Notes: generated from the sequence alone by a model not told the origin. Counted from the whole stretch's first letter, positions 83-62,134 are shown. The stretch: 62,824 nt of DNA, filler included, from Kipferlia bialata (GCA_003568945.1; 4 parts of 3 records of this genome joined end to end with filler, not necessarily neighbours in it), one strand, 5' to 3'. Program-made: numbers and translations.

Positions 83-911
83 ATCTGACAGAGAGGCCCT
101 TCTCAGTGCCTGCCTTGGCCTGAGTGATGTGTCCAACCCATTCAGACCACTGTCTGTGGCCATAAAGTGCGAGGGGGCACTCTTTAGGTATGTACATACC
201 CATTTATATAGATATATATAGGTTAAAACACACATAAAAATATAGGTATTGTTCTGTCAGTACCCATCAAGTGCGAGGGGGCACTGTTCAGGTGTGTGTA
301 CATATGCATATATGTATAGAGAGAGAGATAGAGGAATGCCCCTGTCTGTGGCCCTCAAGTGCGAGGGGTATATAGATAGATATATATACACATGTTATAT
401 GTATGTATATGTATATATTTGTACACATGTGTGCCTGTTCTAATGATATAGTTACTGTCCCTATTCTAATGATTCCTTATGCTTATTCTAATGATTCATT
501 TGCTTATTCTAATGATTCCTATGCTTATTCTAATGATCCAGCGAGCAGTGCAGGGCAGCAGCCACCAGAGAGCTATTCACGCCACCCGCTCCTGAGGGAG
601 AGAGAGAGATGCCTACGAAGGAGAAGGGAGAGAGAGAGAGAGAGTACAGCAGAGCCAAGGGCAACATTTGGTTCCTCTCCCACTTTGCTGAACCCCTTTT
701 CAAGGGTCTCTCTCCCATTCTCTCTCTCGCAGAAGAGGGTATTGAGGGTGTAGAGGGAGAGAGAGAGGGAGATGGTAGTCTCCTTCAGTGGCTGGGTGAT
801 AACCTCACCAACTCAACTGAGTACTGGACGTCTAGACGTCTGGAACTAGAGTCAGAGAGAGAGAGGGAGACTCAGGGTGTTGTCTCCCCGGGCGTTGTGT
901 ATACCCCTTAG
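83..911 (+). CDS. 3',5'-cyclic nucleotide phosphodiesterase-like protein, C-terminal part (5' truncated; exons 83-187, 542-911)
   Basis: Spliced translation SDREALLSACLGLSDVSNPFRPLSVAIKCEGALFSEQ...SRAKGNIWFLSHFAEPLFKGL...LGDNLTNSTEYW follows the class I PDE C-terminal pattern (aDlSNPxRP...xQigFixxxxxPLF...NxxxW). Splice sites are canonical GT/AG and in phase. Confidence 0.7.
461..541 (+). repeat. ~21-bp tandem repeat x4 (TATTCTAATGATTCCTATGCT-like) at the 3' end of an intron
   Basis: Directly visible; the last unit ends in the CAG acceptor at 539-541. Confidence 0.85.
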
Positions 912-1476
912 ACGGGCCTGACGCCCTAGACGCCCTAGACGCCCTAGACGCTCACATTATGCGTACGTTATCTGGAAGAGTTTAGTCACATTCCTTTTGA
1001 CTCATTCTCTTTCCCTTCAATCTTTCCTTCTCTAGAAGCAGTACACTTGATCTACTTGTACAAATACCTTTCTACTGGGCTTATTATGCGCCCCATACCC
1101 ATCGAATAGATGACTCTTTGTACTTGAAGTGGTATCCGACGCCTCAAATATCATACATCTGCTTAAGATACCAAGTAGTACTGGAGAGTCACGCCACAAA
1201 TACTAGAAACCAATCTATTATTGAAATGACTGAAGCAGTATATATCCATCGTAACCATGACATAATCGCTATGATAGTCATTGAACGACCCATTCCATAA
1301 CGTGAAATGAGTCATTACTTGATGGACTGAACACACAAACACATGAAAACGTATGGAAACGTAAAAGAATGGAGAATCCCGTTAACAACCGAAGATTCTG
1401 AAAACTTCCTGAACCTTAGGAGCCGTAGTGATAGCCCTAGGTGTCTAGGCGTCTAGGCGTCTAGGCGTCTTTGCGT

Positions 1477-1781
1477 CTATGCGTCTCCTGTGATGACTCC
1501 CATGACTGACATGATGGTGTTGAGGATGCCTAAGGGGTTAGAGGAGAGGATTCATAGAATCAAAGACATAAAGGTAGTAAGGGAGTATATGAAAAAGTTG
1601 ACATTGAATATACATGCGAGCATGATGGTGATGAGGATGCCTGAATAGTTAGATGAACAGAACAACAACTGTTACTGAGTCCCTTTCAGTATATAATATA
1701 TACAATACTCTCCCACTTCCTACCTGTGACAGTCAGCACGAACCCTGTGAAGGACCAGTGCCACCTGACAATAAGGGTGCA

Positions 1782-1819
<38 letters not shown>

Positions 1820-3581
1820 GGGTACCTGATCTCATAGTTCTTCTCGAGTGCCTCTCTCTCATGCTCCAGGGCTAGCTCACGCATCCTCTCGGCCTAAGGG
1901 GTCAGTGTATAGACTGACAGAAACACGGTATTGTAACTATATGTATATATATACCTCAGCCTCTGCCTCTGCCTCTGCCTCTGAGTCCTCTTGTATACAT
2001 TACTATATATATATATGAACCTATAGTATATGTATAGACTACAACATAAATATTGCAACACTATGCATATATACAACAGATGAACAGGTATACATATATA
2101 CCTCAGCCTCCGCCTTTGCCTCTGCCTCTGAGTCCTCATATATGTATGTATAGATACATGTATACACTAATGCACTGTCTCATTATACAATATATACTAT
2201 ATATATACAGTGAAATATAGTAGATTCGCACCTCTGCCGCTGCCTTTGCCTCTGCCTCCGAGTCCTCGTGTATATACATAGAGTAATATCTAGTAGATGG
2301 TAGAGTATCTAATGTATACGCATATATGGTATATATATAGTATGTAGACATGTATACACAAACCTCTGCCTCTGCCTTTGCCTCTGCCTCTGAGTCCTCT
2401 ATGGCCCCATAGTCACTGGACTCCACATCAATCTGGTTGACGGCAGTAGCTATTGTTAGTCTAATGAAGTCATTAGAATAAGAAATAGTATATATGTATT
2501 CCTATATACTATAGTCACTGGACTCAACGTCAATCTGGTTGACACCAGTGGCTATTGTTAGTCTAATGACTCATTAGAATTTCAAATATGTATACTTATC
2601 CTATAGGATACTGGACTCACTAATACATCCACATATAATTGTAGCAGTATAGAGTATATATAGAGAAACGCATACCTTCTCCACTGAGCATTGAGTCGAA
2701 TGGCATACTATATATATAGTGTATACATATATATGTAAGATGTAGTATATACCTTCTCCGCTAAGCATTGAGTCGAATGGCCCCCTCACTGTGGCCAGGG
2801 AGTGTGCACGCTCACGGCCCATGACCCTGCTGCCAGTCTCCCTGGGGGGTTAAGGTACATAAATAAATGTACAGAGAGAGAATGTATATGTATATATATA
2901 TATAGAGAGAGAGAGAGAGATGGTCCATGACCCTGATGCCAGTCTCCCTGGGGGGTTAAGATACACTACTCTATATATATATACTATACTATATGCACAT
3001 ACATATAGTGATATATGTATGTATATATATATAGAGAGAGATGGTCCATGACCCTGCTGCCAGTCTCCCTTTGGGGTTAGTGAATACGTATATACCTTTA
3101 CTGTGAAGTTACGAGTAAACCACAAATATTCATTGAATGTCCATAATGAACCAGTCAATAGCAATGTATGTATACATATGACTATGTAGACTGCGTATAT
3201 CGATACCTTGCAATGTTCGCCAGGATGTTCCTTCTGCCAGTACCTTCACAATATATATATATATATACTAGCTATGTATACATAACATATATATAGTATA
3301 TACGTAGTATATATACCTTGCGATGTCCGCCAGGATGTTCCTCCTGCCAGTACCTTCACTATACATGTATATATACATATACTATGAGGTATATATATAA
3401 ATATATATATTGCATATACATACTTAGTATCTATATACCTAGCAATTTCTGCCAGGATGTTCCTCCTGCCAGTACCTCCACTATACATTGCAATGTCTGC
3501 CAGGATGTTCCTCCTGCCCAGTCTCCTAGGCTCATCAACCAGGGGGGCCTCGCTGGGGTGAGTGTATGTACATGTGTATAC

Positions 3582-3620
<39 letters not shown>

Positions 3621-5624
3621 CTGCCTGGCCTCCTTGGCTCATCTACCAGAGGGGCCTCACTGGAGTTAGTATATACATTGAATGTATATATATATATATA
3701 TATATATATAGTGTGTGTGAGAGAGAGAGAGAGTGAGACCATAATAACATACCTCCCGTGTGTATCCTCGTCTGAGTTCTCATCCAGGAAGTCAGCCATG
3801 TGCTTCTGCCTGAGGGTAAGGATACATGCACTAAATATAGGCATCCATTTATATGTATATGTGTATATATAAGTTCTGTACAGGAGGTCCGACATGTGCT
3901 CCAGCCAGGTATGGGATATATATACTGTACACTGTGCAATTAAACAAAACAAAAGAGTCATTAGTAGATCTAATGGGAATATCAGATAATGATATATATG
4001 CATACCTAGTCTTCTCGAGACCCGTGACGTCTGGCTGGGTCAGAGAGGCAGACATGCACCTGAGGGTAAGGAAGATATACCTAAAAATAGTATATATACA
4101 TATACATACATGTAACAGTATAGAAGAGAGAGGGAGACACACGTACAAATATTATATATATATATTATAGGTTCATGTCAACACACCTAGCTCTGCTGCC
4201 CCTCCTCCCGCTGTGGTCCCTCTCTGACACACTGGCCCTGCGCCTGGCAAACACACTGTCTGGCAATTAGGGGCTAGGGGGGGGGGAGAGATACACAGTT
4301 CATATATTTACTCAAGTATAGAGAATATAAAATTATAGATATATGCTATATAGTATAACATGTATACCCCCTCTCTGCCTCTCTGACACACTGCCTCTGT
4401 GCAAGTGGGAGATATATACACCAGTCTATATAGAATATATAGTTATAGATATATACTATATAGTATAGACTAGTACCTCCTCTCTGCCTCTCTGACACAC
4501 TGCCCCTGTGCAAGTGGGAGATGGAGTCCTCCACACACATATATATATTAGTATATATATACTATTTGCATACAATACATATGTGTGTATACCCCCTCTT
4601 TGTCTTTCAGAGACACTGCCCCTGTGCAAGTGGGAGATGGAGTCCTCGACACTGTCAATGGCATCCCTGGGAATAAGGGGCTAGAGGGAGAGAGAGAGAG
4701 AGAGAGGAAGGGAGCGAGAGGGAGATGGAGGCCTCGACACAATCAATTACGATGAGAAGGATGAGAGAGAAAGAAGAAGCAAGTGACTAGGACTGTACTG
4801 TACCGATACTTACTTGACCATTCCGTATCTGTCGGCACCGGCAAGGACAGACCTGGGAATAAGGGTGCAGTAGAAAGCAACAGATAGAGACACCATCGGT
4901 AGTATTAGAAAAAGTATGTTAGGTATGAAAGGACGAAGACGTACACTGTAGCAGCGAACACGTCCTCCCCCTCTGTGTTCTCATGGGTGTCTGAGAGAAG
5001 GTGGTGCGTGGACTCGCCGGCATCGGCACCCTCCCTGATCACAAACCTAGGCAATTAGGGGGCTAGAGAGAGAAAGAGAGAGAGAGAGAGCATCGGCACC
5101 CTCCCTGATCACAAACCTATGTATTAGAGGGCTAGAGGGAGAGAGAGAGAGAGAGAGAGAGCATCGGCACCCTCCCTGATCACAAACCTAGGCAATTAGG
5201 GGGCTAGAGAGAGAGAGAGAGAGAGAGAGAAGGTTAGATATATAGAAATTTATATATAGAGAGAGAGGGAGGATGATGGAGCCAAAGGTGGCCAAAGGCA
5301 GCGGAGAAGACTGGAGAAGTAAATGGGTCCTTGCAAAGCGTATTTGTGGTATGCTTACAGAGACGGATCACGCCAAACCCTCACACTTAGAATATCGTGT
5401 AAAACTAATTGAATATGGATGTGTGAAAGACGCATAACCATACAAAATATACATAATGTATATATAATAATTGAATACAAATCAAACAGTACTATACCAC
5501 AATTACCTAGCACTGTGCTGATGCTGGGCACCACAGCTGCTATGGTGACACTCAGGATGTATATCACAATGGTGCAGCCCAGCTCGAGACGTCCAAGGTC
5601 ATGGGTACGGGCTAAGATAAGGGT

Positions 5625-5660
<36 letters not shown>

Positions 5661-7116
5661 GGCCAAGGTCATGGGTACGGGCTGGAATAAGGGTGTAGAG
5701 AGAGAAACAGATGGGGTAACCCTGACACAGAGGATTCATATGAAGAGGGCATATATTCTATATATATATATATATATATGCACACTCACATGTGATGAGT
5801 GACACTGCTGCGTCTCTGGAGCAGTGATCCACAAGGGGGTAGCAACAGGTGACAACAGTGGCCATGAGGACCTGGCATAAAGGGGTGTAGAGGGGGAGAG
5901 AGAGAGAGAGAGAAAAAATGGTCCACAAGGGGGTAGCAACAGGTGACAACAGTAGCCATGAGGACCCAGTATATAAGGGGTGGGAGAGGGAGAGAGAGAG
6001 ATCGGTCACCGATCGAGGAAATGGTCACTCCAAACTGGTGTTATGGGTACCGAGAGAGAGAGAGAGAGACTCTGTATACCTTGAGTCCGATGGCCAGAGA
6101 ACTGTCAATAAAAAGGGGTGTAGAGGGCGGGAGAGAGAGAGAGACACTTCTAAGTGACAGAATATACCTTGAGTCCGATGGCCAGAGTACTGTCAGCCAT
6201 AAAAGGGTGTAGAGGGCGGGAGAGAGAGATAGATAGAGAGAGAGAGAGACTTTATACCTTGAGACCGATGGCCAGAGTACTGTCAGCCTTGAAGTTGAGC
6301 AGGATATCATCCCTGGGATAAAAGGGTGTAGGGGACCACATTGAGGGTCTAGGAGTCTTGTATTCATTGAAATTTGTAGTGTCGTTCACCACAGTACTAT
6401 TAGTCTACCACACCTAGTGTAGGCACATATATGGGTATAATATACAATATGTGATATATACCTAGTGTCTGTTCCAAAGACGGAGCTACCAACAAGGGCA
6501 AACACGACCTCCATGACAAGGGTCAGAGAGAGACCTGGGGTCAATCGGAGACAAGATAAGATGACAAAAGAATCAATCAGACACAACGCGTGATGAGACA
6601 TATATATTGTGATAATAATAATATGTGTTATATCCATGACAAGGGTCAGAGAGAGGCCTGTGGTCACGATAACAACAAGATAGCAGAGGAATATCGTGTG
6701 TGGATACATAATTGTGATGAAATATCATGTCAATATCCATGACAAGGTCAGAGAGAGACCTGGGGTCAATCGGAGAGTATTTCGTAGAATGTGAATACAC
6801 CAATCAATATGAAATTCATACCGTAGTCAATTCCCTTAGTGCAATGATGTCCCTCTGCTTACATGTATATACCCATATATATATATATATATCTATGTAT
6901 ACTTACCAGATAAAAATTATATATATATACTACTACTATACATATACATACCATAATTTATCCCCTTTGTCACAATGATGCCCCTCTGCTTGTGGGTGCC
7001 ACCCACATACACATCTCTCTCTCTCCCTATATACATATACTACTATACATATCATACCATAGTTGATCCCTTTAGTCACTATGACCCCCCTCTGCTTGTG
7101 GGTGCCACCCAAATAC

Positions 7117-7151
<35 letters not shown>

Positions 7152-7258
7152 CACACTATTACACTTACCATAATTAATGCCTTTAGTCACTATGACCCCC
7201 CTCTGCTTGTGTGTGCCACCCACACTGTTGTAGAGGGAGGAGATGGCAAACTGGGCAC
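1477..7258 (-). CDS. Amino-acid transporter (Aa_trans / SLC36-SLC38-like), C-terminal half, many short exons; 5' part probably lost in the N gap at 7392-7491
   Basis: Exon translations GAQFAISSLYNSVGG..KGINY / GLSLTLVMEVVFALVGSSVFGTDTR / DDILLNFKADSTLAIGLK / VLMATVVTCCYPLV..CSRDAAVSLI / CTIVIYILSVTIAAVVPSISTVL / ...WHWSFTGFVLTVTG / ILNTIMSVMGVITGDA* match the order of the last transmembrane helices of Aa_trans proteins (GxxxFG..ILLNF; YPL). Confidence 0.7.
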
Positions 7259-7495
7259 CTATTATGAGGACATATCAATATATATATATACTATATTAAG
7301 AGAGAGAGAGAGAGAGAGATAGAGAGAGAGACCCACACTGTTGTACAGGGAGGAGATGGCAAACTGGGCGCCTGGCATAAAGATATATACANNNNNNNNN
7401 NNNNNNNNNNNNNNNNNNNNNNNNNNNNNNNNNNNNNNNNNNNNNNNNNNNNNNNNNNNNNNNNNNNNNNNNNNNNNNNNNNNNNNNNNNNCTAG

Positions 7496-8097: not shown

Positions 8098-11000
8098 ATG
8101 ACAGCCGAGACCCCAGCTGTTCGTACTCTTGAGGACCTCCAGGTGTGTTGTGGTGGTGTTGTGCTGTTGGAGGGTTTTTCGGGGTCGTGACACCCGGTGT
8201 GTGGGGTTGTGTGGACAATACTTGTATTTTCGTTGTTTCTTTGTCATTCAGACTCTTTGCAGAGCTCCTGTGCAGGGATTACTTGGTTTGTGTGCTTCCT
8301 ACTTCATTAAGCCTCGTTATATTAACCACAGGCCGCCCTCGAGACCAACCCATACGATCTGGGTTCCTGGGACATTCTGCTGCAGGTGAGACCCTCTGGG
8401 TAATGTCTGCGTCGTTGTGGTTGGGGGCGCCGGCCCAGAGATGGGGGTGGGGGTGGTATGCGGAGGTGGTGGGGGCGAGGCTGGTCTTGTTTGGGTGTTC
8501 GGCGCGCGTTTCCCTAGTTCCTCCCAGAATCAAGAGTCTTACCTTTCAGAACCACGCCGACACTAGCGAGGACCTTGAGTTTGTGACCAAGTGTTACGAG
8601 GACTTCCTTACCGTATACCCTCTGTGCTTCTACTACTGGAGGCGTTACGCCAACAACCTTCACAGGCTCTCTGGTACGTTGCCAGTGTCTGAATCAATTT
8701 GTCACGTCATCAATCTATTGTACCCTAATACACATAGTATAGCTATTGTTATCTGATTTTTACCTGTATTCTAAGTGTTCCTAGGTAAATATATCCCTAA
8801 ACGGGGGTTGAAGGTTGTGTGGGAGGTGTTGCTGTACTCTTCGTTTCTGGTTATCTTCTATTTGTGATTTATGGTTGTATATATGGGTGTAATCTTAGCC
8901 TCTGGTGGGTGACCGAGAAAGTGAGGGGGAGTGTGCGTGCATGTTTGTGTATTATTAAGTCACCTACCTCTCAACCTCACTTATCATACAGCAACGAGTT
9001 CTTGACACAGTTGAGACTCACATATTTATGTTTATTATATTCTATTATGCCACAGTTATGATACTATTGTGTTCTAAGCATATGTCTGAGCTTTTGTGAT
9101 TATTATATCACTCTTAATATTGTAATTATTGTTCTTGTGATACCTCTCTCTTTACCATGCAGCGCCCGGCTCCAGCCTCTGATCTACATCGATAGCCTTT
9201 GCAAGAAGTAATGTATGTTATGTGGGAGTGGGAGAGCAGTTGTGTCAGTTGTGTTATGATATAGTTATGTATAATCAGTGTAGGTATTCATCTCTATAGT
9301 ATATATGTGTGGTGGCCACAAGAAATAGTGTATAGATACTATTGTGTGTTGCTTTATGTACAGTGTTCATGATATATTATACATATGTATATATACTTTG
9401 TGTATATCGTATGTATCATGTAGGTGTGATCCTTCACTATATATGTATGTAATATTGTGTTCTCTCATAACGGGTCGATATATATATACTTCTTGTATTA
9501 ATGTATAATATATATCTATGTCTTATATAATTTGTCTCTATCTATTCTACTAGTTCTATGTAGTGTGACCACCGCTTGTGATATTCGCATCTCTCTATCT
9601 CTCTGATCCCACATCTATCTCTCCCACTCCTCACCCGCAAGGAGTACCACGGCTGAATCCTCTTCTATCCATCATGCTTATTGTGTCGTATACTGTGTGT
9701 ATACTATTTACATATATACCCCTTCTCACCCCCCAGGCGAGGGTGCCTATGAGGCTGCCCTGGGCGTGTACCTGAAGGGCGTGGCCCTGCTCCCATCCCT
9801 CTTTGACCTCTGGAACGAGCTCTTTGCATTCCTCATCAAGGAGGAGGAGGGCGAGGGCGGTACGTTCTATTGGTAGTCTCTCTCTCTTTTCCTATCCGTC
9901 GTCTGCTCTCTTTGGCGAGGTCACCTCCCTCCCCCCCCCCTCTTCTCTCCCTCTCTCTATATGTATATTTCTAACCCCCAGAGAATGTGACTGCCGAGGT
10001 TGTCCTCGAGCACATGGAGAAGGGACTGTGCCTGGCCGGAAACGACTGGAGGGCAGGTATGTACATTAATATACTTCCATACTATACCCCCTCCATCCCC
10101 CCACCCTCCTCGGCTCCACCGCCAGCCTCCGTCTCTCTCTCTCTCTCCCTGTGCCCCCCCACCCCCGTCTATCCCTAACCCCTTAGGCCCCATGTGGATC
10201 AAGTACATCGAGTACGCCACCAAGACTGGCCAGGAGGAGATCATCATGAAGGCCTACCAGGTATATATGGTTAAATATGTATATATATATGCCAATACTG
10301 TGTATTTGTGTATGTCTCTCCCTCACCCCCAGCTTGCCTCCGAGCGCGTCTACGCCTCCATCGTTGAGGTCAAGACCCAGTTCGAGGCATACGTTGCCCA
10401 GGCTGGTACGGTCCATCCCTCTATCTCTATATATATGTATAGCTGTACCATGCTTACCGTCAGTGGACGCCAACCCCATGGGCGCCTCCATCATTGCCTC
10501 CTTCGACCACTCCATCGAGACAGCCACTAGGTATGCATATATATATGTATATATGCATATGTATATCTGTGTATATATGTATATATATATGGTATTTATA
10601 TGGGACCTCACCCCCAGGGTTGTCGAGGACGAGAAGCGCGTGGCCACCCGCACCTTCTTCCACCCCTCCCCCCCCGACGCCCCCTTCGTCTCTGCCTGGA
10701 GGAAGTACCTCACCAGGGAGAGCAACCCCAAGGTATATATACAATATACATATAACCCTCTCTCTCTGTGTGTGTGTGAGTCTTGATGATATACTCACTC
10801 CCTAGGCTGTCGTGAAGGCACCCGTCGTTGCTGCCCCCGCCCCCGTTGAGGCCCCTGCCCCTGTCCCTGTGCAGCCACCCGCCGGCATTGTGGCTGGTGC
10901 ACCAGGTATATATATGTGTATATATGTATTTATATTCTCTTTCTTTCTCTTTGGTTTTCAATATGAAGTGTTCTCGTGCTTACCCCCCAGGTGAGGTTGC

Positions 11001-12029
11001 TGAGGAGGAGGCCCCCGCCGCTGAGGCTGAGGCTGAGGTTGAGGTGTGTACACCACTATTAACCACATTTATATATATATATGTATACATGTGTGTCTAA
11101 CCCCAGGCTGAGGGTGACGCCACCATGGAGACCGAGGAGGCAGGCGAGGCAGAGGCCCTGGCAGCCGCCCTCAAGGTATATATATAACCACACCCCCACA
11201 CACATATATATATGTATATATATATATATACTAGATGCAATGTACTTATATATCAGGAGAGGGACCAGGCCTGGGTCCAGTTCCTCTTTGAGCGTGCTCT
11301 TGTCCCCCTGTCCAAGCACACTGACTTCTGGTACCTCTACCAGGCATACCTCGCCAGGTACCCACACCCCCACTTCTCTCTGTTATATATCTATCTATGG
11401 GTTCGCTCACCCCCAGGGTCCAGGGATCTGAGGCTGCCTACGCCACCCTGTCCCGCTCCCTCCCCCTCCACATGCACAAGGTATGGACACCATGTATACG
11501 TACCACTATATGCACATTGATATATATATGTGTGTGTTTGTTAGATACTGATGCCAGGTGACCCTCCCCGCCCCCTACCTGCTCATGTCCGACGCTGCCA
11601 GGTCCGCTGGCAACCAGGTACCCACTCGCTTGCTCTCTCTCTATATATATAAAGAATTATGTATATGAATATTTACTCTGCTGTATCTTTCTAACCCCTA
11701 GGAGGATGCCGAGAAGTGGCTCCGCCAGGGACTCGAGATGTGCCCCAAGTCCGCCGACATCAGGTACAACATGCATATATATATATATGGTATATAGTAT
11801 ACAGTTCTTATATATACTTACCCCCAGGTGTGCACTTGCCGCTGTGCTCGCCCCCACCAACGCCCTCGAGGGACTCAACGTACGACATTAGCTGTTTCTC
11901 TCTGTCATATATGTATGTATTGATGTATAGAAAGATACATTGCCTCACCCCCCAGATTGTGAAGGAGGGCCTCGAGACCCTGCCCCCCTCCAACAGGAGC
12001 CACCTGGCCATGGTGGACTCTGTCACAAG
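8098..12029 (+). CDS. PRP39: Pre-mRNA-processing factor 39-like HAT-repeat protein (U1 snRNP), about 18 exons, 3' truncated by scaffold end
   Basis: MTAETPAVRTLEDLQ|AALETNPYDLGSWDILLQ|NHADTSEDLEFVTKCYEDFLTVYPLCFYYWRRYANN..|GEGAYEAALGVYLKGVALLPSLFDLWNE..; later FFHPSP...AWRKYL and VQFLFERALVPLSKHTDFWYLY, typical of Prp39 HAT repeats. Confidence 0.8.
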
Positions 12030-12110: not shown

Positions 12111-12210
12111 NNNNNNNNNNNNNNNNNNNNNNNNNNNNNNNNNNNNNNNNNNNNTTAATTAATTAANNNNNNNNNNNNNNNNNNNNNNNNNNNNNNNNNN
12201 NNNNNNNNNN
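12111..12210. other. Artificial scaffold linker N44-TTAATTAATTAA-N44
   Basis: All-frame stop linker inside an N run, flanked by poly-C/poly-G contig ends; identical linkers at 25224-25323 and 52062-52161. Confidence 0.95.
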
Positions 12211-12261: not shown

Positions 12262-12310
12262 AAGGTACTCCCAATATACACAGATCACACATACAGCCAC
12301 CATCACCCAC

Positions 12311-37040: not shown

Positions 37041-37071
<31 letters not shown>

Positions 37072-37641: not shown

Positions 37642-37682
<41 letters not shown>

Positions 37683-39085: not shown

Positions 39086-39116
<31 letters not shown>

Positions 39117-45736: not shown

Positions 45737-45773
<37 letters not shown>

Positions 45774-46365: not shown

Positions 46366-46398
<33 letters not shown>

Positions 46399-46471
46399 CT
46401 ATATATACACACACACATATACATATATACCATACATATATACCTTGCTGATGCCTTGTCTCCCTTCATGA

Positions 46472-46511
<40 letters not shown>

Positions 46512-46600
46512 TAATATATATATGTACACATACATATATATATACTATATACATACCTAGCCGATGCCTTGTCTCCCTTCATGGCCATCTCTGTCAGGTA

Positions 46601-46641
<41 letters not shown>

Positions 46642-48711: not shown

Positions 48712-48744
<33 letters not shown>

Positions 48745-49470: not shown

Positions 49471-49660
49471 CCTAGCCTCAACACACGGCGCTAAATAGGA
49501 TACAAGTGACGAGTAGGAAGGGACTTACACCCCTATTCCGTTTTTGCGAGATAATTCCTAGACCCCTTGATGAAAATGTGTTTTTGCAGAGAGTGACCAA
49601 GAGAGACTCGTTGCGATCCGTGATGGATCAGCCTTTAAGAGCCATTATCACCCACTAGAG

Positions 49661-51942
49661 ATGCTTACCAACGCCGCCAGAGCTTTTGGAACCGTCAGGC
49701 CCACCTTCAAGCACCCCTACCTGCCCCACACCGCCGAGTCGAGGGCCAAGGCCATGGCTGTGATTGGATGCAACCGTGACGAGGGCTGTGACCTTTTCAT
49801 GGACATCCCCGGGGAGCTGAGGTGGGTTCAGGCACTGTATAACCGATATTGAGTAATAATGATGGTTATTGACCCCCAGGTGTGACTCTCTGGAGCTTGG
49901 GGAGGCCATGTCTGAGTCCCAGGTCAGTGGTCTCTCTCTCCTGCTCTCAGTCACTCTCTCTCAGTGCTGGTGTAGTCACAGTCACTGTTGTCATATGCTA
50001 GGCCTGTGCTATATTGCTGGATGACATATCAATGACTATATCATACCTCTCTCTCTCTCTCTCTATCTACATGTCATACCAGTACACCCTCTCTATCTCC
50101 CCCCCACCCCAGGTCCATGCCCACTTTGAGGCCATCTCCAACAAGAACATGAAGGCATCGGAGGGACCATTCTTCCTGGGTAGGGATACACATTTATATA
50201 TGTAGTGACATTCATGATTGTTAGTCTCCACTTGTCATGCCGTGTCAATTGTGTCGGTGTCGGTTTGTTTCTACCATATATTGAATATTAGTTACCTTCT
50301 CTCACCCCCCAGGCGCTGGTCTGTACCGCCACCACATCCCCACGCCATTTGTATGTATATATGTATGTATGTAATGCATGTGTATTACTCTCCCTCACCC
50401 CAGGCGCTGGTCTGTACCGCCACCACATCCCCACTGTTGTGGACCATGTGTTCCAGAGGTCAGAGTTCATGACTGCCTACACACCCTACCAGCCAGAGGT
50501 ACATAGCATGAGTGTATATATATGTATGTATAATTGTATATTCATACATATACCATGTGTATACTATCACTATATGTACTACCTCAATATTATATGCATA
50601 TATACATACCCTCACTGCCAGGTCTCCCAGGGCACTCTCCAGGCCACTCTATACATATATGTGTATATGTCAACTGATGCATCTTTGTTCTATGTCTACT
50701 ACCCTCCAGGTGTCCCAGGGCACCCTCCAGGCCCTCTTTGAGTACCAGTCCCTCGTGGCATCCCTCACAGGTATGTACACATAGGGGGATAGAAGTATAC
50801 ATTTATAGTGGGTGTACACTCCCTCTTCGTTGACTCTCTCCCTTCTCTCTCTCTCCCTCCCCCCCACCCCAGGCTGCGATGTGTCCAATGCCTCCATGTA
50901 CGATGGAGCCACATCCACAGTCGAGGTACACATTACTGTTATACCTATATCTGTTTAGATAGACATTCCCTGCCTTCCCCCAGGCAGCCCTCATGGCTGC
51001 CCATACCGTGTGCTTGAATACATAGTATATATTAGTTAGTTCTATTTGTATATATATATTCAATTAGTATGTATACCTTCCCACTTCCCCCAGGCCGCCC
51101 TCATGGCTGCCCGTATCTCCAGGAGGAAGAACGTGCTCATGTCCCCCTCCCTGCACCCCCAGTACTCTGAGGTATATATGTACTATATATTTGTATATTC
51201 ATGACATTTGTGTGTATGTGAAACAGTTGTGTATATATGATGCCTCCCCCTCACCCCCAGGTTGTGAAGACCTTTGTATACATTTTACTTACACTGACAT
51301 ATATATGTATATATTAATGATTGTCTCCCCCTGACCCCCAGGTTGTGAACACCTATGCCCAGGCCTCAGGTGCCATTGTGCCCACCACAGTGGACAGCAA
51401 GGGGTGCACAGACGCAGGTCTCAGTATGTATATACATACTATATATAATGTATATGTATATATAATGTGTGTGCCCAGTAGTATTTTGGATATATATTAT
51501 TATAGTATCCAATATCCTTACCCCCAGGCTTCGATGCGCTGATTGACGCCGTTGACAAGAAGACTGCCTGTGTCGTTGTGCAGAACCCAGACGTATACGG
51601 CAATGTGCACGACATCTCAGCCCTCGCAGACAAGTGAGTGTGTGTGGATTATACTGCATTCATTTGTATATGTATCATCTTGAGTCCCTCTCACCCCCAG
51701 GTGCCACGAGAACAAGGCCCTGCTCGTTGTCACAGTCCCAGACATGGCATCCCTCGGTACGGGTGGTAATGTATATGTATGCATATATATATATATACCT
51801 ATACCTAACCCCCAGGCCTCCTCGCCTCCCCCGGCTCCAAGGGTGCCGACATTGTTGTGGGTGAGGGCGGCTCCCTGGCCTCCCCCATGTCCTTTGGAGG
51901 GCCCCAGCTCGGGTGCTTTGCCACAAAGGCTAAGTATGCCAG
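49661..51942 (+). CDS. gcvPA: Glycine cleavage system P protein subunit 1 (split, GcvPA type), 11 exons visible, 3' truncated
   Basis: YLPHT...[68 protein letters not shown] and [19 protein letters not shown]. Exons 49661-49821, 49880-49922, 50113-50179, 50404-50498, 50710-50770, 50873-50925, 51094-51171, 51342-51417, 51528-51633, 51701-51756, 51816-51942. Confidence 0.93.
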
Positions 51943-51963
51943 GTATACATAGGGTAATATTAT

Positions 51964-51994
<31 letters not shown>

Positions 51995-52018
51995 ATACAC
52001 TATCTATCTCTCTCTTTC

Positions 52019-52061
<43 letters not shown>

Positions 52062-52161
52062 NNNNNNNNNNNNNNNNNNNNNNNNNNNNNNNNNNNNNNN
52101 NNNNNTTAATTAATTAANNNNNNNNNNNNNNNNNNNNNNNNNNNNNNNNNNNNNNNNNNNN
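52062..52161. other. Artificial scaffold linker
   Basis: N44-TTAATTAATTAA-N44. Confidence 0.95.
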
Positions 52162-52632: not shown

Positions 52633-55600
52633 TTACTCACTAGACTCTAGCACACTCTCCAGCATATCCCTGATGGCTATCCCAAAGAACTCATACCCGT
52701 AGATGATGTGGGGGATGGTCAGAAGGTTGGGTTTGGCGTCAATTCGTCTCCTCATCCAGTCCCCCTTCTCCCTCTCTCTCTCTAGATACTGCTCTACTAG
52801 AGGTCTTCTGGACTCAGGTTTTGTCCATACCCACTGAGTGTCACTATCTCCATGGACATGTTCCTCCCTAGCATGTGCAGTGGGTCGCTCATACTCTAGG
52901 TAGGCAGGAAGGACACTCAGGATGATGTCCGGAGTTGGTAAGGCAAGTGCACAGTGTAGATATGCACCAACATGTCCATGAATAGAAGTGGAAGCGCCGC
53001 AGTGTATGGCCACCACTCTGTTCAGGGACCTCAGCATAAGGGGGCAGTGTACCCCTCCAATGGGGTTGTAGGACACACCGAATGGTAGTGGCTCTCCCAT
53101 GAGGTCGTCACTCTCCTCAGTGAGACACTCACTCTCACTATCAGGGTGTGGGAGGGACTGCCTTGTACTCCCCAGCATCACTGCAGGTGTGTATCCCCCT
53201 AGTCCAACTAGAGAGGGTGCAACCATAGAGGGCAGACACATGCCCGGGTACGAGGGGAGTGACTCTGGTATGCTCAACAAGCACGGTTCGAAGTGCCTGG
53301 TTGAGATGTCCCCCTGACAAGCCAGGCTGTTACACCACTGGGAACCAAACAGATACGCTAGTGAGACTGTTACATGGCTAGTGTCACCGAGTCTCGCTGG
53401 CCGCTCCCCTTTGATGCGCTGATACTTGGCGATTGCGATGGACAGCCGGGTAGCAAGGGTGTTTGCCACACACTCTACAAACAGAGAGTCAGGTACCTCT
53501 AGACTGGGGTCTGCCGCTAGTGCCACTAGGCGATGGAAGGTGTCTACAAAGGGGGCCCATACTCTCACTGTTGACGGGGGATAGGAGTATGTGTTCCTCG
53601 TCACAGCCGTGTCCCGCTGCTTCCGCTGTGTCGTGCCTGGCAGTAAGGTATTGCAGTTAATTACTAATAGAAACAACACACTACAGTAATACACTACCAC
53701 ATCCCTTTACCTCATCAGCAATGCTGATTTAGCATATAGTCTGTTGATTCAAACCTCACCTGGCAACGACTGAGAGACTACGTACTGGTAGGGCCAGTGC
53801 TAACAGTCGTGGGTACTGCTGGGGAAGTGATGTGAGTCGGTCCATGTAGCACCCCCCCTTGGCGGAGTCGGGAGAGAGCAGTGCCCCGGGGGGTGGCTGC
53901 ATGTAGGATGATATCTGATAGCCAGAGAGGGACATGTGGGTGAGCAGATCCTGGTCCCACTCTACACTGTCGGGTCTCAGTGGATGTACACTCCAGTCAA
54001 ATGGCCCTTCGTCTCCATCTTGTACATGCCTACTATATGCTTCCATGACAGAGACCATGGTCCTAGGGTGTCCACAGCACCTGAGCAGAGCAGCCACAGC
54101 ACGAGGCATATCCTCTCTAGGGACCTCGCATCTCTCACCCCCTGGGCTGGGTGTGTACCCCTGTGCCGCAAATGCACGAACTGCAGAGACCTTGGTGATC
54201 CCATGTATGTAGTAGTCCACTGGTATGATGGGTGCATTCCCAGAGTCCCACATCTTGGCGGCGTCATCCCTGCATCTATGTGAGATATATACTACTATTA
54301 CTCTTATACAGATTATTACTATCAATACTTACGTACATTCCCATGGTAGTCAATGCGAAGGAGTCTCCCTCCCACCGTCTCAGCATGTGTTCTCCTCCCT
54401 GTAATATCAGTATCAATATAAGTATTGTATGTATACATTGTATATATTCAAATTGAGGTATATCAAGAGATGGTTACAGGATCAGTAAAACACAGAGTCA
54501 CATATGTAGTCGACATATATATATTTGTATTCTATGCATACCTTCAGTGTGGCCCTTGGATCTGCCATGAAGTCGTGGATGTAGATTATGTATGGTATGT
54601 GGCTGCACTTGGCCCATGGATGCTTTCGCATCAGAGAGAGCGCTGTAGCGTCATCTGGGTACATTGCCATGACGGCAGTCATGTTATGGGCGAGTACAGC
54701 AGGATCCTCTCTGTCTGTGTACAGTCCACTCTCTGTTGGATATGACAGACACACAGGCATGTGCGGGGTTGGAGTGTACTCTGTTCGCCCTATCTGGAGA
54801 ACACGATGACGTTGAAAGAGAAAGTGTCTCCTCTCCATCTCCCACAAGAATGTGTCGTACATGGAAGGACAGGTCTGCTGCACGATAGACCTGTATATGT
54901 GGTCGGTGTCTGTGTGCTTGGCTATGTTGACAGAGCGCCCAGAGAGATGTATGTACATGAGGAAGTAGACATGGCTCCTAGCGTGACTTAGCCTCACTGC
55001 ACGTTCTCTGAGATTGTGCGGGTCAGTCCTCTGCCAAGATTGAGGTGTGTAGTGGTGCGAGACCCTCTCTATAACAGCCTCCAGGAAGCCCTTCCTTAGG
55101 AGTACGGTGTCCAGTACACCACATGCAAACTCTGCCTTACCAGAGCCAGGAGTACACTGTGTACTACACAGTCTTGTCACCCCTCCGAACTCCGGCCAGT
55201 CTAAGGGCCAGACCACAAGTGTATGTCACTACGAGTGTGTCCATACCAAGGAGGGGGCGCCTCCGCTGACCGTTGAAGGGGGGCAGCGTGTTTGCATGGA
55301 GTGCTGCTTTGGTCCAAGCCTTGTAGGTGAGATGTGGATTCGATATACAATGGTCGTATATCATAGTGTCTTGTACCCAGAGATTGGCATGTACTACTCC
55401 GTGAGGTCTCTCACCTATACACACACATATACACATATCATTGCATGTACATATATACACACCTCGTATGATCTCTCAGCCTCAGCCTCTGCACTGAGCT
55501 CCTGTATCAATGCCAGAGAGTCAGTCAGAGAGTGAATGCCTCTAGACAGACACTCACTCTTAGGTAGTAACACACACGGCACACACATGGGTGCATACTG

Positions 55601-57598
55601 TACCCACCCCTCCTCCCCCACACACTCAGCTGGGTCGAAGCGCCTCAGGGGGGTGAGGCAGGGGTCTAGCTCCAGTTCAGTGTGGAGAGGTATGTCAGGC
55701 ACAGGGTAGATGCCGACAACAGGTACACCGACCAGTACTATATCACCAGCCGCGGGTGACTCTTTTGGCTTGAACCCCCTACACAGCTTGTTGCGTGTGT
55801 CACTTAGGTAGCAAGGGTCCCCTCTCTCGAGTCTTGCGAAGAGGAGCTCTCTATCCTTCATTGAGGGGAGAGCACCCGTGTATAGCTCTCCACGCACTGA
55901 GCTCGTCGTAGTGGGTAGGGCAGACTGTGGCAAGTCACAGTGTGACAAGTCAGAGAGTGCGTAACTGTCCTCTGCCAGTCTAGTGGAGTAGTGCCAGTGT
56001 GTCATGCTGTCAATGCTAGAGAGGGCAGGGATATCCTAGGATCAAAGACGTATAGTGTATATATCATAAGTAATGGTATTTACATACTAAAGAATATGGT
56101 ACGGTTTATGGTATATGGTCCATACAGTGACTGGTAGAGAGGGCAGGGATATCCTAAGGGGGTGAGAGACTATATAGTAGACAGTATATATATATATATT
56201 ATATAGTATATATTATATGGTATATAGTATATAGTATATAGTATATGGAGAGGGCAGGGATATCCTAAGGGGGTGAGAGGTGTATGATGTATAATGTGTT
56301 ATATGTAGGACGTACCATATTGTATACAGTATGCAATATATTATTCATTTGCCAATATATAGTGTATAGAATATTTCATATCATATTGTCAATGATATGC
56401 CCTTCTCTATTCCGATCCGCAATAGACTGATACCTCAGTATAACCAAATGCCTGCACTTTGTAGCCGGCGGCTGGTGCGGCTATGTTTCGGATAGTGCGG
56501 ATGCCACTGGTATTAATACTCAATGATAGAATGAGAATGGATTACTTCTCATTCTTTCATTACTTTGTTATTTGTACTTAGTGTTAACAGTATTCAATAT
56601 CACTGGACTCCTGGGGGGGGAGATGGGAGGTAACGTGGTATGTGCCACTCATTGCATAGTATATACCTAAGGAGTTTCTGTGTCACCTCCCCGTCGTACC
56701 TGTTAATACATATTGATGCACATATTACACTGTGTAAATGTATAAATGTATATGATACAAATATTATTCACTGAATACCTAATGAACAGGTGTGTCACCT
56801 CCCCGTCATACATGTTGATACACATACCTAAACATATTACATTGTGTATATATGTAATATATACATTGTATATGATGTGTAATATATACCTGATGAACAG
56901 CTGTGTCACCTCCCCATCATACATGTTGTGCTTCACACACACTGTCACAAGGGACTGACCCGATGCAGAGTAGGGGTAGAGGGGGCAGACCTAATAGTGA
57001 ATGTATGTATACTATATATGATATATACTATGTACAATATATATCAATACACAAACTATATGTACTGACCCGATGCAGAATAGGGAGAGAGGGGACATAC
57101 CTGGGGTCAGTATTAGAACCAATACAGTAGCTAGTGAATATGAGAAGAGAGAGAGTGGCAGCTGTCCGCTACGACAGTTGTATAGGTGCATGTAGATACA
57201 AGTATACGGAGAGAGGCACTAGAGACAGGCCAGAGGTAGTATCTGGGTAGAGACAGCAGAGTTAGAGTGTGTGGGACAATACATAGAGAGAGAGATATGA
57301 TACGCGGAGACTCCTGGGAGATCTATATTATAGGAAGAGATAGGAGGAGAGGACAGGTCTTGCGTGACCTTAGATTGACAAATACACATACTTACTCACA
57401 CACACTTATATCAATGTATAGTATATCTATATTGTGATACATATTGGACAGATATACTTTGAATATGTAGATGTGCACCACATCACCATGCAGTGCCAGG
57501 GTGGTGGGGGGGCAGATCAAAGACAGAATTAGCAACAAGTATACCTGCAGGGGATCTTCAAGAGTGGTGGCTGGGACTTGAGAGACATCTACTTCCAT
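52633..57598 (-). CDS. Large hypothetical protein with a degenerate P-loop-like motif; 5' exons uncertain
   Basis: Four long colinear minus-strand frames (about 56035-55463, 55216-54542, 54275-53760, 53640-52633) bounded by splice sites; CTPGSGKA and IIYIHD motifs; candidate first exon MEVDVSQVPATTLEDPLQ at 57598. Confidence 0.5.
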
Positions 57599-57999
57599 TT
57601 AGAGCTGTCTAAAGGCCAGATGTGATATGAACTAGGTCAACCCTTCCAATTTTTGGTGAATCGGATTTTCGGTTGATGTCTGCAAGATAGACAGTCCCTA
57701 TATTCCATTGACGTGCGTTGATTATCGTCATCTCTATGAGAACTTCTCTGTTGGCTGCATATTGAAGACACTCATTTCAATGTGATGACTCAAGAATAGT
57801 ATCCATTGTAGTGAGATGCAATACTAGTAATATGTATCAGATAATCACTAATAGCATCTTGATACTTCATAATCAATGTCTCTATTCTCCTGTTGAGGAT
57901 TGACGATGACATGGCATCTACATTAGGTGTGTGTCTAGGGCCTATACTCTAGGCCCTCTATCTCAGGTGAGCAATGGGTAGTCTACACCAGGTATATAC

Positions 58000-60900
58000 C
58001 TAGGCCCTCTGCCCCAGGTATGTATCTACTGGGACGACAGGCACTCCAAGGGCAGAGGCAACAGGGGGGAAGGCTAGGGGTATTAGATATGGCACACATA
58101 TATACATGTATACTATATATATATAGGGAACATCTCTATGTGAGGACAGGTACTCCAAGGGCAACAGGGGGGAAAGCTAGGTGATTAGACATCGACTGAT
58201 AAGCATGCATATGCAGTTGTGGCTGTCAAGCAACATAATGGGGAACAAGATGGTATACAGGCGTGACTATTGACGTTCGTGTATGCATATATATATGTAT
58301 ATATGTATGTATGTGTTTAAAATGTGCAGTAACTTACAGTATGTTTACCAGGCACCAGCCAAAGAAGTATGGTAAGTAGTCGTTCTGAAAGATAGTATGC
58401 AATGTAGACATGCACTGAAGATGAACACTAATAGCATACCGAGGAAGTAGCCCATCTCGTCCTGCAGTCTCTCTCTCTTGGCCTGTGAGTGCTTCAGCTC
58501 ACGGACCTAGATTGTCAGTGTCAGTAGTACTATAAGACGAGAGAGGGAACAAGGACATGTGGTAAGATATCCATAATGAGATCTTCTCACCTTCTTCTGG
58601 TACCTCTCGACCTGTGTCACTGCCTCTGTCTTCTGATCCTCTCTCCTCATCCTGGGATGAAGGTGGAGTATACTGCATATAGTAGTCATTATTCAATTAA
58701 TATGTATATAGGGCTTCCCGAAGCAAACGGTCGCTATGATCATGTCAGATACTACAATGTGATACCTTGGGTTCTTGGCTGCTACCTCAGCCACAAGGAC
58801 ATCATACTCTGCGCACTCAATGTCAGAGTCTGAGACAGTGGGAGTGGCCTGGGGGTTAATGATACTTCCAATATATTAAGCCATATCCAATCGCTGTCTA
58901 CAATGTATATGTATTACATAGTAAACGTACGCCGCACATACATATGTGTACATACACACACACATATATATATATATTTAAGTATGTATATGCAGATCTA
59001 TACATATACGTATATGAGTATATACACCCACCTTGTACTCCTCCAGCCGCTGCAGTCCCTGCTTCTGCAGAGGTGCCAGCTTGGCAAGTGTCTTTAGGAG
59101 AGAATCACTCTGGTCCCGCACCCTCTCCCACTCAGTCATGTTCACCCCACGCTGTGAGTGGTTGTTGCAGGTCCCTCCTCTTACACCTATACAGTGCTGG
59201 ATGCGGTCACAGCATGCAATGAGAGGGGTCGCCAGACGCAGTACCCCCCTCACATCATCGTTGTAGTCCTCCACCACGACGTACTTGACCTTGTCGGGGA
59301 GGGAGAGACTCATAGTGTCACGGGGGAGGGGGATGAGGCCAATGCTGTCGAGGCTAGCCACTAGCCCCTGAGCCTCAACGATAGAGGACGGTGCCTCGGA
59401 ATGGTCACGCTGAGAAATGAAGGCCTGACGTAAACATTTGACTCTGCCAGTCTAAAACTATACGCTAGAGGACTAATACCTGCAGAGAGGCGTGGAACTC
59501 CGTGCAGAGACCGGACAGCGAGGCGACCAGGGCTCCGCAGTCCTCCGAGACCACCTAGGGGGTTAGAAGTGGGAGAGAGAGCAATGCACTAAAAATGGAG
59601 AGGAGGTGGGGGTTTGGAGGTGGTGTATTTGAAATGTAGTGGATAGTGTACCTTCTCCAGTGTGTGCTCAGACATGAATGTCTGAAGGGCTGCCAGCTGA
59701 AAGGTGAAACATTATGGGGGGGAGGTATAGTAGGTGGACCATACTACATTGTGAGGTTGTGTTATCCAAATAATCACGTTGGTATAGGGGTACAAAATGT
59801 ACCCCATTACCAAACATACATGCCCCTCAATCACACTCTGTCTCTATGACATAGTCATATCTCATGTAAACACTATAGCAACCATATAGAAGCCACACTC
59901 ATATGGATACACAAAACAATTAGTACACATACAGCCTTCTCCTGAAGGCCTGTCCCTCTGGATACCTCGCTCTCTCTCACTCTACATATATATATAGATG
60001 TGTGTACTTGTTACCGTCTTCTGGAGGGCGGTCTCTCTCTCTATATATACATAATGTATACGTATATATATATATATGCACATGCAACAAGCTACCTTCT
60101 CCTGGAGGGCTGTCTGACTGCATGCCTCCAGGGAATCCAGAGCAGAGGACAGGGCTGGAGGGTAAGTGATGACAGTATACCAATCTGTAAATGCCTATTG
60201 TACCCCATATACCCTATAATTAATATAGTCTATATAAACATATACTATATGTTATATGTGTACATCCTGTAAACAGGGGCGAGTGAGGGACTGACCCAAT
60301 TCACAACACCATAATATTATGCCTACTCAGCATCCAGTCCCGACTCTAGGAATGAATGAACAGTCATTACCCATACTCCAGTGTATCTATATAGTATATA
60401 CGGTATGAGTCACACATACCCTCGATATCCATGGCCTTGACCCTCTCCGTGAGAGCCTTTACTCTCTCACTGGGAGTGAGAGGCATACTACTAATGTATA
60501 TTTCCGTACTATCATAGTGGACATACATACCGTAGAGAGGGTATATATACTATTATATACAACAGCTCTATGCAGGTACCTCATCTCTGGGTTGAAGTGT
60601 GCAAAGTGCTGCATCGGTGTCTGTTCCTCAGCCTATGGGTCAGACTATACTACATAGTATAAGGATACAGTGTATCAGTATCTCAGTATGATATGTTGTG
60701 TATCATTCACAAAATATGGATACTGTTCCTCAGCCTATGGGTCAGACTCTACTACATCTGGATAAGGATACACTACATAAGGATATGTATACTAATACTG
60801 ATACTTATTCAACAACATTATACATATATATACATGGAGAGACATACATTAGAAGGCGAGAATACAAATATATGGATACAGATATATACATACATACATA

Positions 60901-62134
60901 TATATATATATGTGTATATACCTGAGAGGCACGCTGTACGAGAGACAAATGAGAGGGCGAGTGAGGAGCTACATAAAGATCTATATACATTATATATATA
61001 CATATATATACATATGTATGTATATATATACAAACCTCAGAGGCACTCTGTATGAGCGACATATGAGAGGGCGAGTGAGGACCTATACATAGATACATAT
61101 GCACTATATACACATATATATATACATACCTCAGAGGCACCCTCTCTCTCTGGTTAGAAGGCGAGAGTTCATATATTATATATATAAGAGGTATATATAT
61201 AATATATAATATACATATGTATACATATACCTCAGCACCCTCTCTCTTGGGGTCACTGCACTCTGCAGAGATGGATGCACACTCTGCCAGAGTATCTGTC
61301 TCCTGTTCCCCTGCAAGTCTGCGGGTTACATCATCGTGAAAGAGGGCGTCCAGCTCCTCTTTCAGAGCCTCCTCGTTGGGACCCTCACAGTCGCTGAGAC
61401 GGAATGGACTTATGGGCCGAGGTCTTGACTTGTGACGGCCCTCCTCAGTAGCTACCTTCCTAGCCGCACTCTGAGTGGGAAGGCCATCAAGAGAGAGGCC
61501 ACCCCATCTGGTGTCGTCCTCGATGAGGGCCTCAATCTTCTCAATGAAACTATCGCTGAGGATGGCATCAAGCTCATCGATAGGGGTAGAGAGGGAAAAT
61601 GGGACAGCACCCTTCTTCTCGCTGTGAGGCAGAGAGCGAGGCCCGGTGGCAGTCTCTGGCGAGGGAGGGACTGTTACACCAGTGACATCAGTGACACCAC
61701 TAGCAGTGGTGGTAATGCTGGGAATGAATCCCTCACGGGCCCTGGTCCTCTTGACCTCGGCCTCGTAACGGGCCAGGTGCTCTCTGGCCACAGAGTTGGT
61801 GACACGGATGTGGTGCTTTCTACACTCCCTGGTGGATAAGACAACAAATATAGAGTATTTGTGTGAACACAGTGTATTATATACTGAGTATAAATGCCCG
61901 ACTACAATGCTGTATCGCACTGGAGGACAGTATGATTATCCTACATTCTCATTCCAGTATATATACATACTACTGGCTATATTACTATGTAGAGTATCAT
62001 ACATATACCGTATAGTATAGTGGGTGATAGTAGGAGAGTGCATACTATCAATAATGTACACAGTACCTGGTGTGTGTCACCAGCTCAGTGGTAGGGATCA
62101 GTTCACTGCAGAACATGCACTGGATAGGTTCCAT
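58000..62134 (-). CDS. Hypothetical protein with N-terminal CCHC zinc finger and C-terminal coiled coil
   Basis: MEPIQCMFCSELIPTTELVTHTR|ECRKHH (C-x2-C-x11-H-x3-C), long exon 61830-61231, later helical exons WERVRDQSDSLLKTLAKLAPLQKQGLQRLEEYK and ELKHSQAKRERLQDEMGYFL. Confidence 0.55.

Follow-up and report, generated by a model that had tools for sequence, protein, structure and literature searches.

The Window and Its Genes

The window described here is a stretch of 62,824 nucleotides (nt), filler included, from Kipferlia bialata (GCA_003568945.1). It consists of intron-rich eukaryotic DNA in four pieces that are linked via N-flanked linkers. Its introns hold short direct copies of one end of the neighbouring exon together with the adjoining splice site, and these are referred to below as half-copies. 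The half-copies follow a one-way layout with a repeat unit of about 100 nt, are skipped in the one transcript available, and differ from their parent exons in a manner that is both coding-like and splice-like.

Two genes of the window are anchored on database proteins. The exon at 51818-51940 is a 100% match to one protein, P0001, labelled as the Kipferlia bialata glycine cleavage system P protein, and the exon at 49051-49470 matches P0002, a hypothetical protein of 1,345 amino acids labelled Kipferlia bialata. Both proteins map exactly onto the window as spliced genes. P0001 occupies the 11 exons of a P-protein gene part on the plus strand (49661-51949; Pfam GDC-P, E 1.5e-75), and P0002 the 35 exons of a gene on the minus strand (36273-49470), whose Sel1 repeat match (E 1.7e-5) lies under the Pfam cut-off. 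Seven further genes were modelled using a small predictor trained on the P0001 and P0002 genes. Their phases were checked by hand and their frames are predictions. The total number of exons examined is 99.

Census and Layout of the Half-Copies

Each of the 99 exons was aligned to both flanking introns. This gave 95 matches with a score of at least 24, of which 89 reached a score of at least 26 and were not of low complexity (six dropped). The removal of two cross-hits between two internally repeated exons left 87 intronic half-copies. In 1,997 control alignments against introns of other genes, a score of at least 26 was reached in 0.75%. The intronic copies of exon ends with their splice site that the original prediction had described from the sequence alone are real. 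They are 13-60 nt long (median 31) with a mean identity of 91%. At least one copy accompanies 48 of the 99 exons, and copies occur in 44 of the 87 complete N-free introns and in eight of the nine modelled genes. There is a single copy for 41 exon ends, two for 20 and three for two. The prediction of one to four copies per exon end therefore stands for one to three, and no set of four was found at the threshold.

The layout of the 89 matches is strictly one-way, as had been predicted: 41 are 5′ ends lying upstream of the full exon, 41 are 3′ ends lying downstream, and none is found in the opposite layouts (82 to 0). The remaining matches comprise four downstream internal, two upstream internal (the dropped cross-hits) and one near-whole copy. 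Such a layout is the shape expected from a one-step tandem duplication spanning one splice site. The repeat unit, measured from the splice site to its copy, is 67-166 nt with a median of 102 (84 units). The counts of flanks, units and introns omit rows that contain N or fall short of the splice site. Of the 78 copies extending to the splice site, 70 retain the GT or AG. Intron length is 102-634 nt where copies are present and 45-265 nt where they are absent.

The original prediction described the system as window-wide, which overstates its extent. Repeat-filled 50-nt bins are concentrated in three stretches (38/147 at 1-7390, 71/355 at 34300-52061 and 14/148 at 55400-62824), with 7/595 elsewhere. 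A PRP39-like gene with a high GC content at third codon positions (GC3) has no copies across its 15 exons.

Loci Carrying Half-Copies

The first gene (“PDE”, an unconfirmed label) has its full exon at 83-187 on the plus strand, a predicted exon between AG and GT without a Pfam match for the exon alone. It is the parent of two 3′ half-copies, at 254-291 (with a GT donor) and 339-368. On the minus strand, a predicted gene part of 11 exons (from exon 5046 to exon 1724), in which the predicted frames chain in phase, has 16 half-copies in its introns (1955-5187). They include three stacked 3′ copies at 1955-1991, 2102-2137 and 2232-2267. A further nine (5657-7369, minus strand) surround five exons of a predicted membrane protein (“Aa_trans”, also unconfirmed). 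Pfam searches of seven single exons confirmed no name, and both labels are those of the original prediction only. The 34.4-kb gene has four 5′ half-copies (34584-35417, minus strand).

The Sel1-like P0002 gene carries 44 half-copies around its exons (36159-49003, minus strand). Among these is a 5′ copy (43217-43240) that is identical to the start of exon 43162-43082 with a different branch motif in front. Two 50-nt 3′ copies of exon 45720-45623 (45357-45569) share silent changes and whole-codon replacements and contain no stop. Three stacked 3′ copies of exon 46724-46647 (46322-46600) each lie behind a (GA)n run, and one of them has an in-frame gap of 6 nt. It was also observed that a downstream copy of the end of the last coding exon (36159-36203, minus strand) carries the stop codon in place of a donor; copies also form at gene ends. 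At 41416-41556 (minus strand), two 40-nt copies resemble a 3′ exon end, differ from each other and lack a full parent exon in the vicinity. In its place, the database model has an intron-like exon of 47 nt, 41626-41580. Either the assembly may lack the true parent exon or the model may be at fault.

The P-protein gene has three 5′ half-copies with acceptors on the plus strand (50313-50343, 50622-50650 and 50984-51005), and a fourth, shorter one near 51261 scores under the threshold. The motifs copied in this gene are conserved columns, as judged from metagenome matches. Five half-copies lie in the 56-kb gene (56121-57100, minus strand) and four in the 58-62 kb gene (58139-61149, minus strand), both with predicted frames; in the latter, more are visible near 60950-61050 under the threshold. 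A 3′ copy at 61126-61149 (minus strand) has a complete acceptor before it and was called by the predictor as an in-frame exon of 24 nt. This copy may have become spliced in. Half-copies mislead gene prediction, as the predictor used here called several of them as exons.

DNA Contigs and a Spliced Transcript

The read check covers 42000-44930, which is 2.9 kb of the P0002 gene, and 9 of its 30 bins are without DNA cover. This DNA may itself derive from sequencing run X1, in which case the X1 contigs are a separate assembly and not a separate sample. None of the runs listed is on record as RNA; run X2 is a guessed RNA run, and it is treated as transcript only because its contig joins at GT-AG introns. 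Contigs of this kind drop rare variants and hide minor forms.

One X1 contig spans 42181-43168 without differences at a depth of 398, and it holds two exons with three of their copies: exon 42746-42829 with its 5′ copy at 42884-42940 and 3′ copy at 42661-42684, and exon 43082-43162 with its 3′ copy at 42988-43019. The neighbouring contigs have depths of 417, 395 and 401. A 31-mer common to exon 43162-43082 and its identical 5′ copy reaches a depth of 850, compared with about 400. The depth of the filler equals that of the exons, and the contigs bridge exon, filler and copy. Where checked, the copies are not an assembly artefact, and the mis-assembly at microsatellites that would have reduced them to a single copy is not what the contigs show.

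On the transcript side, one spliced X2 contig of 2,807 nt joins eight exons (42372-44791, minus strand). It shows no other letters on these exons, and its seven listed joints are GT-AG introns. It makes no use of the 12 copies in the flanking introns, which carry 35 aligned differences, and it equals the full exon in all eight of the exons shown. In this one transcript of eight exons, the main mRNA uses the full exons and the copies are skipped.

Coding-Like Divergence and Decay

Mismatches between exon and copy fall at the three codon positions in the numbers 48/47/170, with 24/21/83 in the two database-modelled genes and 47/44/149 when each variant is counted once per family. With one copy per family, the synonymous divergence (dS) is 0.30 and the nonsynonymous divergence (dN) 0.049, giving a dN/dS of 0.16 (95% confidence interval 0.10-0.25; highest of 5,000 bootstraps 0.32). 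The mismatches are thus mostly synonymous, as claimed, and they are not spread evenly over the codon positions within the window. The amino-acid changes, which were said to be conservative, are weakly so (mean BLOSUM62 -0.11 vs -0.54 expected, P=0.08).

As the real exon keeps gaining silent changes, the null of equal codon positions adopted in the original prediction is too lenient. A fair null lets an initially identical copy decay as silent changes accumulate in the exon, and the ratio is then at least 0.5. Simulations of this null under the same alignment filter gave 42-47% third-position mismatches, with a highest value of 56% in 4 x 300 runs, compared with 64% observed. The conclusion that the copies were once under protein-level selection survives this simulation. 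Mismatches between two copies (19/19/36) are also enriched at third positions (P=0.0045), which upholds the predicted enrichment in this comparison, but the majority does not fall there.

The copies have since begun to decay. Changes private to one copy comprise 25 silent, 35 amino-acid-changing and one stop, and those separating an exon from all its copies comprise 19 silent and four amino-acid-changing. There are two stops in 877 copy codons, and six of eight gaps shift the frame. The suggestion that the copies are still under selection is therefore not borne out, given the 36 nonsynonymous or stop changes against 25 silent ones, the frameshifts and the spliced contig. It was as working exon ends that the copies took shape, and they are now decaying.

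Third-position differences are balanced between GC-to-AT (61) and AT-to-GC (61). Their level fits a single constant (dispersion P=0.10; log-likelihood -131.7 vs -136.1 for exponential ages). Divergence at first and second positions is over-dispersed (P=0.0002), varies like age and is uncorrelated with that at third positions (rho 0.06), a test that is weakened by short copies and by the score filter. In 3′ copies, the proportion of silent differences (pS) falls from 0.43 near the donor to 0.29 and then to 0.10 beyond 30 nt, with the proportion of amino-acid-changing differences (pN) flat near 0.04. With all copies included, none of 10,000 permutations matched the silent gradient toward the splice site.

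Splice Signals Beside the Copies

At acceptor positions -14 to -3, a copy differs from its parent at 42% of positions, compared with 59% between unrelated acceptors. Copy acceptors nevertheless score 4.1 bits against 4.8 for the parents; the same number of random changes gives -1.6, and none of 5,000 simulations reached 4.1. A branch-like motif is present in 27 of 39 copies and 65 of 98 real acceptors, against 10% in the intron background, and in 10 copies it differs from that of the parent. Donor positions +3 to +6 differ from the parent at 49% (score 0.88 vs -1.15). Sites scoring within the upper three quarters of real sites make up 23/39 of the copy acceptors and 20/39 of the copy donors. 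Acceptors of different copies differ from each other at 42% (8 pairs), the same as copy from parent, and the identity of the exon part correlates weakly with that of the intron flank (rho 0.19, P=0.11).

The GT and AG dinucleotides of the copies are altered at about 5% of positions, which equals dN and serves as a second measure of decay. At this level of decay, two sequences that started out identical should differ by about 0.10 and not by 0.30. Each copy thus began already different from the exon, as a working edge with a working splice site, and then sustained about 5% neutral damage.

Recursive splicing employs ratchet points, which are intronic acceptors that are absent from the final mRNA and need AG|GT. 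Such a junction is lacking in 31 of 39 5′ copies. The 8/39 that begin with GT are no more than the exons themselves show (29/99). A terminal AG is found in 24 of 29 exons with 3′ copies vs 50 of 70, and the copies have no acceptor there. As for mutually exclusive tandem exons, which need both splice sites and an open frame, 1/89 copies is near-whole. A good partner site accompanies three of the 43 copies with a good site (3 of the 78 copies tested), by which they could be closed into a cassette exon. The unusual splicing put forward in the original prediction fails on both counts.

Other Features of the Window

The three linkers (12111-12210, 25224-25323 and 52062-52161) are identical, each with 44 N, 12 bases and 44 N, and long C and G runs lie alongside. 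The PRP39-like gene, the copy-free control, has 15 exons on the plus strand (9737-12029), a mean intron of 81 nt, a GC3 of 0.82 and a weak PRP39 HAT match (E 0.011). An intronless open frame of 2.1 kb lies at 12300-14430 (minus strand) in an otherwise intron-rich window. 10-nt tandem repeats at 900-950 and 1430-1490 flank a 500-nt stretch, and the two sets are mutually complementary. A small mobile element may have its two ends here.

On the minus strand, an apparently broken or frameshifted exon is seen at 5310-5250. There is a jump from phase 1 at the end of the membrane-protein gene (7258-5507) to phase 2 at the start of the next clear exon (5046), which may reflect two genes or one damaged gene. 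Old in-frame protein repeats are present at 3439-4666 (minus strand), where exons 4666 and 4259 cross-align and exon 3552 has an internal repeat. Many introns at 4593-7390 (minus strand) end alike, with a (CT)n run, a short C-rich and T-rich tract and AG, unlike other introns of the window. This shared motif hints at copying among introns.

Origin of the Half-Copies

The simplest source of an exon edge that works and yet differs is another allele with a deeply diverged intron. The half-copies are accordingly read, with moderate confidence, as real and decaying tandem duplicates, probably made when homologous repair that used a divergent working allele as template was aborted and then closed by end joining. 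Among the candidates of the original prediction, exchange between highly divergent alleles fits best. Alleles would share exon cores, with deeply diverged introns. A broken end would invade the other allele through exon homology, and synthesis would copy about 100 nt over one splice site into the foreign intron, often halting at a dinucleotide run, be it (TA)n, (GA)n or (CT)n. The strand would then fail to re-anneal across 15-60 mismatched bases and would be joined directly to the other end. The product would be one full exon plus a half exon that bears the single splice site of the other allele. Products yielding a second complete exon would be purged; half exons would be tolerated, as the spliceosome would need an acceptor and a donor flanking an exon. 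The inserted copy would then decay neutrally. It cannot be told which of the two versions is the older, nor whether the allelic difference dates from the duplication or from a subsequent conversion of the exon.

Several lines of background are consistent with such a route. Mismatched annealing is rejected, and diversity is raised beside DNA that does not pair. In the window, a dinucleotide run of at least 8 nt lies at 28 of 76 junctions, against a background of 15%. In Caenorhabditis elegans, tandem duplications ranging from about 100 bp to 10 kb arise when synthesis-dependent strand annealing (SDSA) fails and polymerase theta does the joining (PMC8654963, in part). Metamonads are described as lacking non-homologous end joining (NHEJ), and fornicates as lacking Rad51A and carrying two Dmc1 paralogs; alternative end joining is full in some metamonads and partial in others (PMC8516963, in part).

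A number of observations weigh against this origin. The predicted frames of the modelled genes underlie 40 of the 87 copies. The 5′ copies have a dN/dS of 0.31, and the silent gradient is not seen in them (pS 0.15, 0.16 and 0.30). The private changes are just 41% silent (25/61; P=0.004-0.04 vs 25-30%, P=0.12 vs 33%). No second exon version is listed among the X1 contigs at 42000-44930, which drop rare variants; alternative letters are absent, and exon edges show no loose ends. The clustering of copies in three stretches has no explanation in the duplication model, and microhomology at the junctions, which are aged, is not clearly enriched (filler-like tetramer 16/87 vs 11%). In the published duplications the median lies near 1 kb and not at 100 nt (PMC8654963, in part). 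In metagenomes, a scan with P0002 gave 21 pattern matches, none confirmed, and no related eukaryotic locus; the best 80 of 549 matches to P0001 are all 40-52% identical, with no intron breaks and none from this lineage. Finally, the model would need very high allelic divergence and outcrossing in this organism, both of which are assumed. To our knowledge, sex has not been observed in this lineage.

It is unlikely that the duplicates began as identical, sister-templated copies whose working parent edge and splice site then changed faster than the copy, through selection from decoy competition or through local hypermutation, so that the copy is a snapshot of an older state. Such a history would require no sex, and it suits both the 19 silent changes among the 23 that separate an exon from all its copies and the silent divergence that is highest beside the splice site. 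The working intron edge would, however, have to change about eight times faster (42-49% vs 5%) than a neutral stretch 100 nt off. The copies also differ mutually at acceptors as much as from the parent, far copies are no more diverged than near ones (55 vs 53 mismatches), and silent divergence does not scale with decay. A derivation from whole exons, or from a second gene set acquired by hybridization or genome doubling, is quite unlikely as well. These would have been functional side by side, for instance as mutually exclusive exons, and later truncated. Coding-like divergence and working splice signals would follow directly, exons 4666 and 4259 are an instance of old in-frame repeats, and a lost homeolog used as repair template would resemble an allele. 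Random loss of splice sites nevertheless predicts all four layouts, where 82 to 0 is seen, and at most one copy is near-whole. The P0001 and P0002 searches, which covered longer proteins only, each returned one protein, so that no living paralog was seen, and up to three stacked versions would require repeated rounds.

Continued use of the copies, by low-level splicing, by looping-out of DNA or by frequent conversion of the exon from the copy, is improbable. The retention of GT or AG in 70/78 copies and the many sites of working grade would favour it, and minor forms are hidden in contigs. The spliced contig equals the exon in all eight cases, though, and the two stops, the six frameshifts, the GT starts at no more than the exon rate and the lack of an acceptor at the exon-end AG in 3′ copies all speak against use. 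The looping-out of the original prediction finds no counterpart in the X1 contigs at 42000-44930, where no DNA joints lacking the filler are listed (rare variants being dropped) and depth does not drop over the fillers. Its copy-to-exon conversion is weak on population-genetic grounds, as by our own inference a selectable conversion rate would erase a dS of 0.3. An assembly artefact, in which haplotypes or co-cultured strains were joined in tandem at microsatellites, is very improbable. It would account for the allele-like divergence and the junctions near dinucleotide runs, and the check is limited in span and possibly in independence. Separately assembled contigs nonetheless cross exon, filler and copy without differences at a depth of 395-417, with the exact repeat at 850. 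Stacked haplotypes would halve the filler depth, would not carry stops or broken splice sites and would not obey the layout rule. Plain neutral decay of identical partial duplicates, with the silent excess arising from the exon’s own evolution, is scarcely credible. It accounts for the layout, stops and frameshifts, and pN/pS is about 0.4 beyond 30 nt from the donor, near the predicted 0.5; but it predicts at most 47% third-position mismatches and a dN/dS of at least 0.5, compared with 64% and 0.16, and offers no route to splice signals that are diverged and yet of working grade.

Aborted repair off a divergent allele may be part of something broader, although this is offered tentatively and is rather doubtful. 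The lineage might routinely swap whole introns and exon edges between deeply diverged alleles as its main break repair in place of NHEJ or Rad51A. Failed swaps would leave a displaced splice site, and introns would grow in steps of about 100 nt into a stacked archive of extinct alleles. If true, introns would here be evolving in a new way, and the sequence would testify to cryptic sex in a free-living relative of Giardia.

If aborted repair is the correct account, one genome records several alleles per splice site, by which silent diversity, outcrossing and splice-site turnover become measurable. It would also supply a concrete route to intron lengthening, in keeping with the lengths of introns with and without copies. 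Good decoy sites that lie about 100 nt away from the true sites are ignored by the spliceosome of this short-intron genome, an observation relevant to the question of exon versus intron definition. The Kipferlia bialata genome has 124,912 introns (PMC5874029, in part), and 87 of 174 spliceosomal proteins have been reported for the species, with no small nuclear RNA candidates found (PMC6679479, in part). The main text of the genome paper, as far as available, has no “tandem”, “duplicat”, “heterozyg” or “ploid” (PMC5874029). Within the literature covered, from which most subscription papers fall outside, no description of the exon-end half-copy pattern was found.

Comparison with Known Systems

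The silent cassettes of antigenic variation are unexpressed sequence with a coding signature, and the pointer-guided DNA elimination of ciliates acts on direct repeats that are able to loop out. The half-copies differ from both in that they lie in housekeeping genes, such as that of the glycine cleavage P protein, and show no DNA joints or loss of depth in the contigs at 42000-44930, from which rare forms would be dropped.

Tandem exon duplication with mutually exclusive exons, as in SCN exon 5, is alike in its exon-like copies in flanking introns and its coding-like divergence, and partial exon duplication has been named in Ciona (bioRxiv 10.1101/2025.08.16.670673, in part). Such exons are whole, carry both splice sites and occur in single genes, whereas those of Kipferlia are one-site halves in a fixed orientation in eight of nine modelled genes.

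Intron gain by tandem genomic duplication likewise places exon-like direct repeats in introns beside the source exon. In that process an exonic AGGT becomes duplicated, and the new donor marks the start of the repeats or the new acceptor marks their end (PMC3443670; PMC3265369; both in part). The units of the window hold an existing splice site with its intron flank and create no new intron, and a GT start is found in 8 of 39 5′ copies.

The chemistry proposed here is the end joining that follows failed SDSA in helq-1 mutant C. elegans, in which a copied strand that fails to anneal leaves direct head-to-tail duplicates from about 100 bp. Those duplications are new copies with a median of about 1 kb in repair mutants (PMC8654963, in part). 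The units described here are 67-166 nt long, lie in a natural genome in up to half of the introns in some genes, and show allele-like divergence. Their 82-to-0 layout and the contigs that bridge the units agree with the head-to-tail, one-junction arrangement of failed SDSA. The mutation itself, tandem duplication spanning a splice site, is of a known kind; what is strange about the half-copies is their very high density and that they bear the signature of divergent working alleles.

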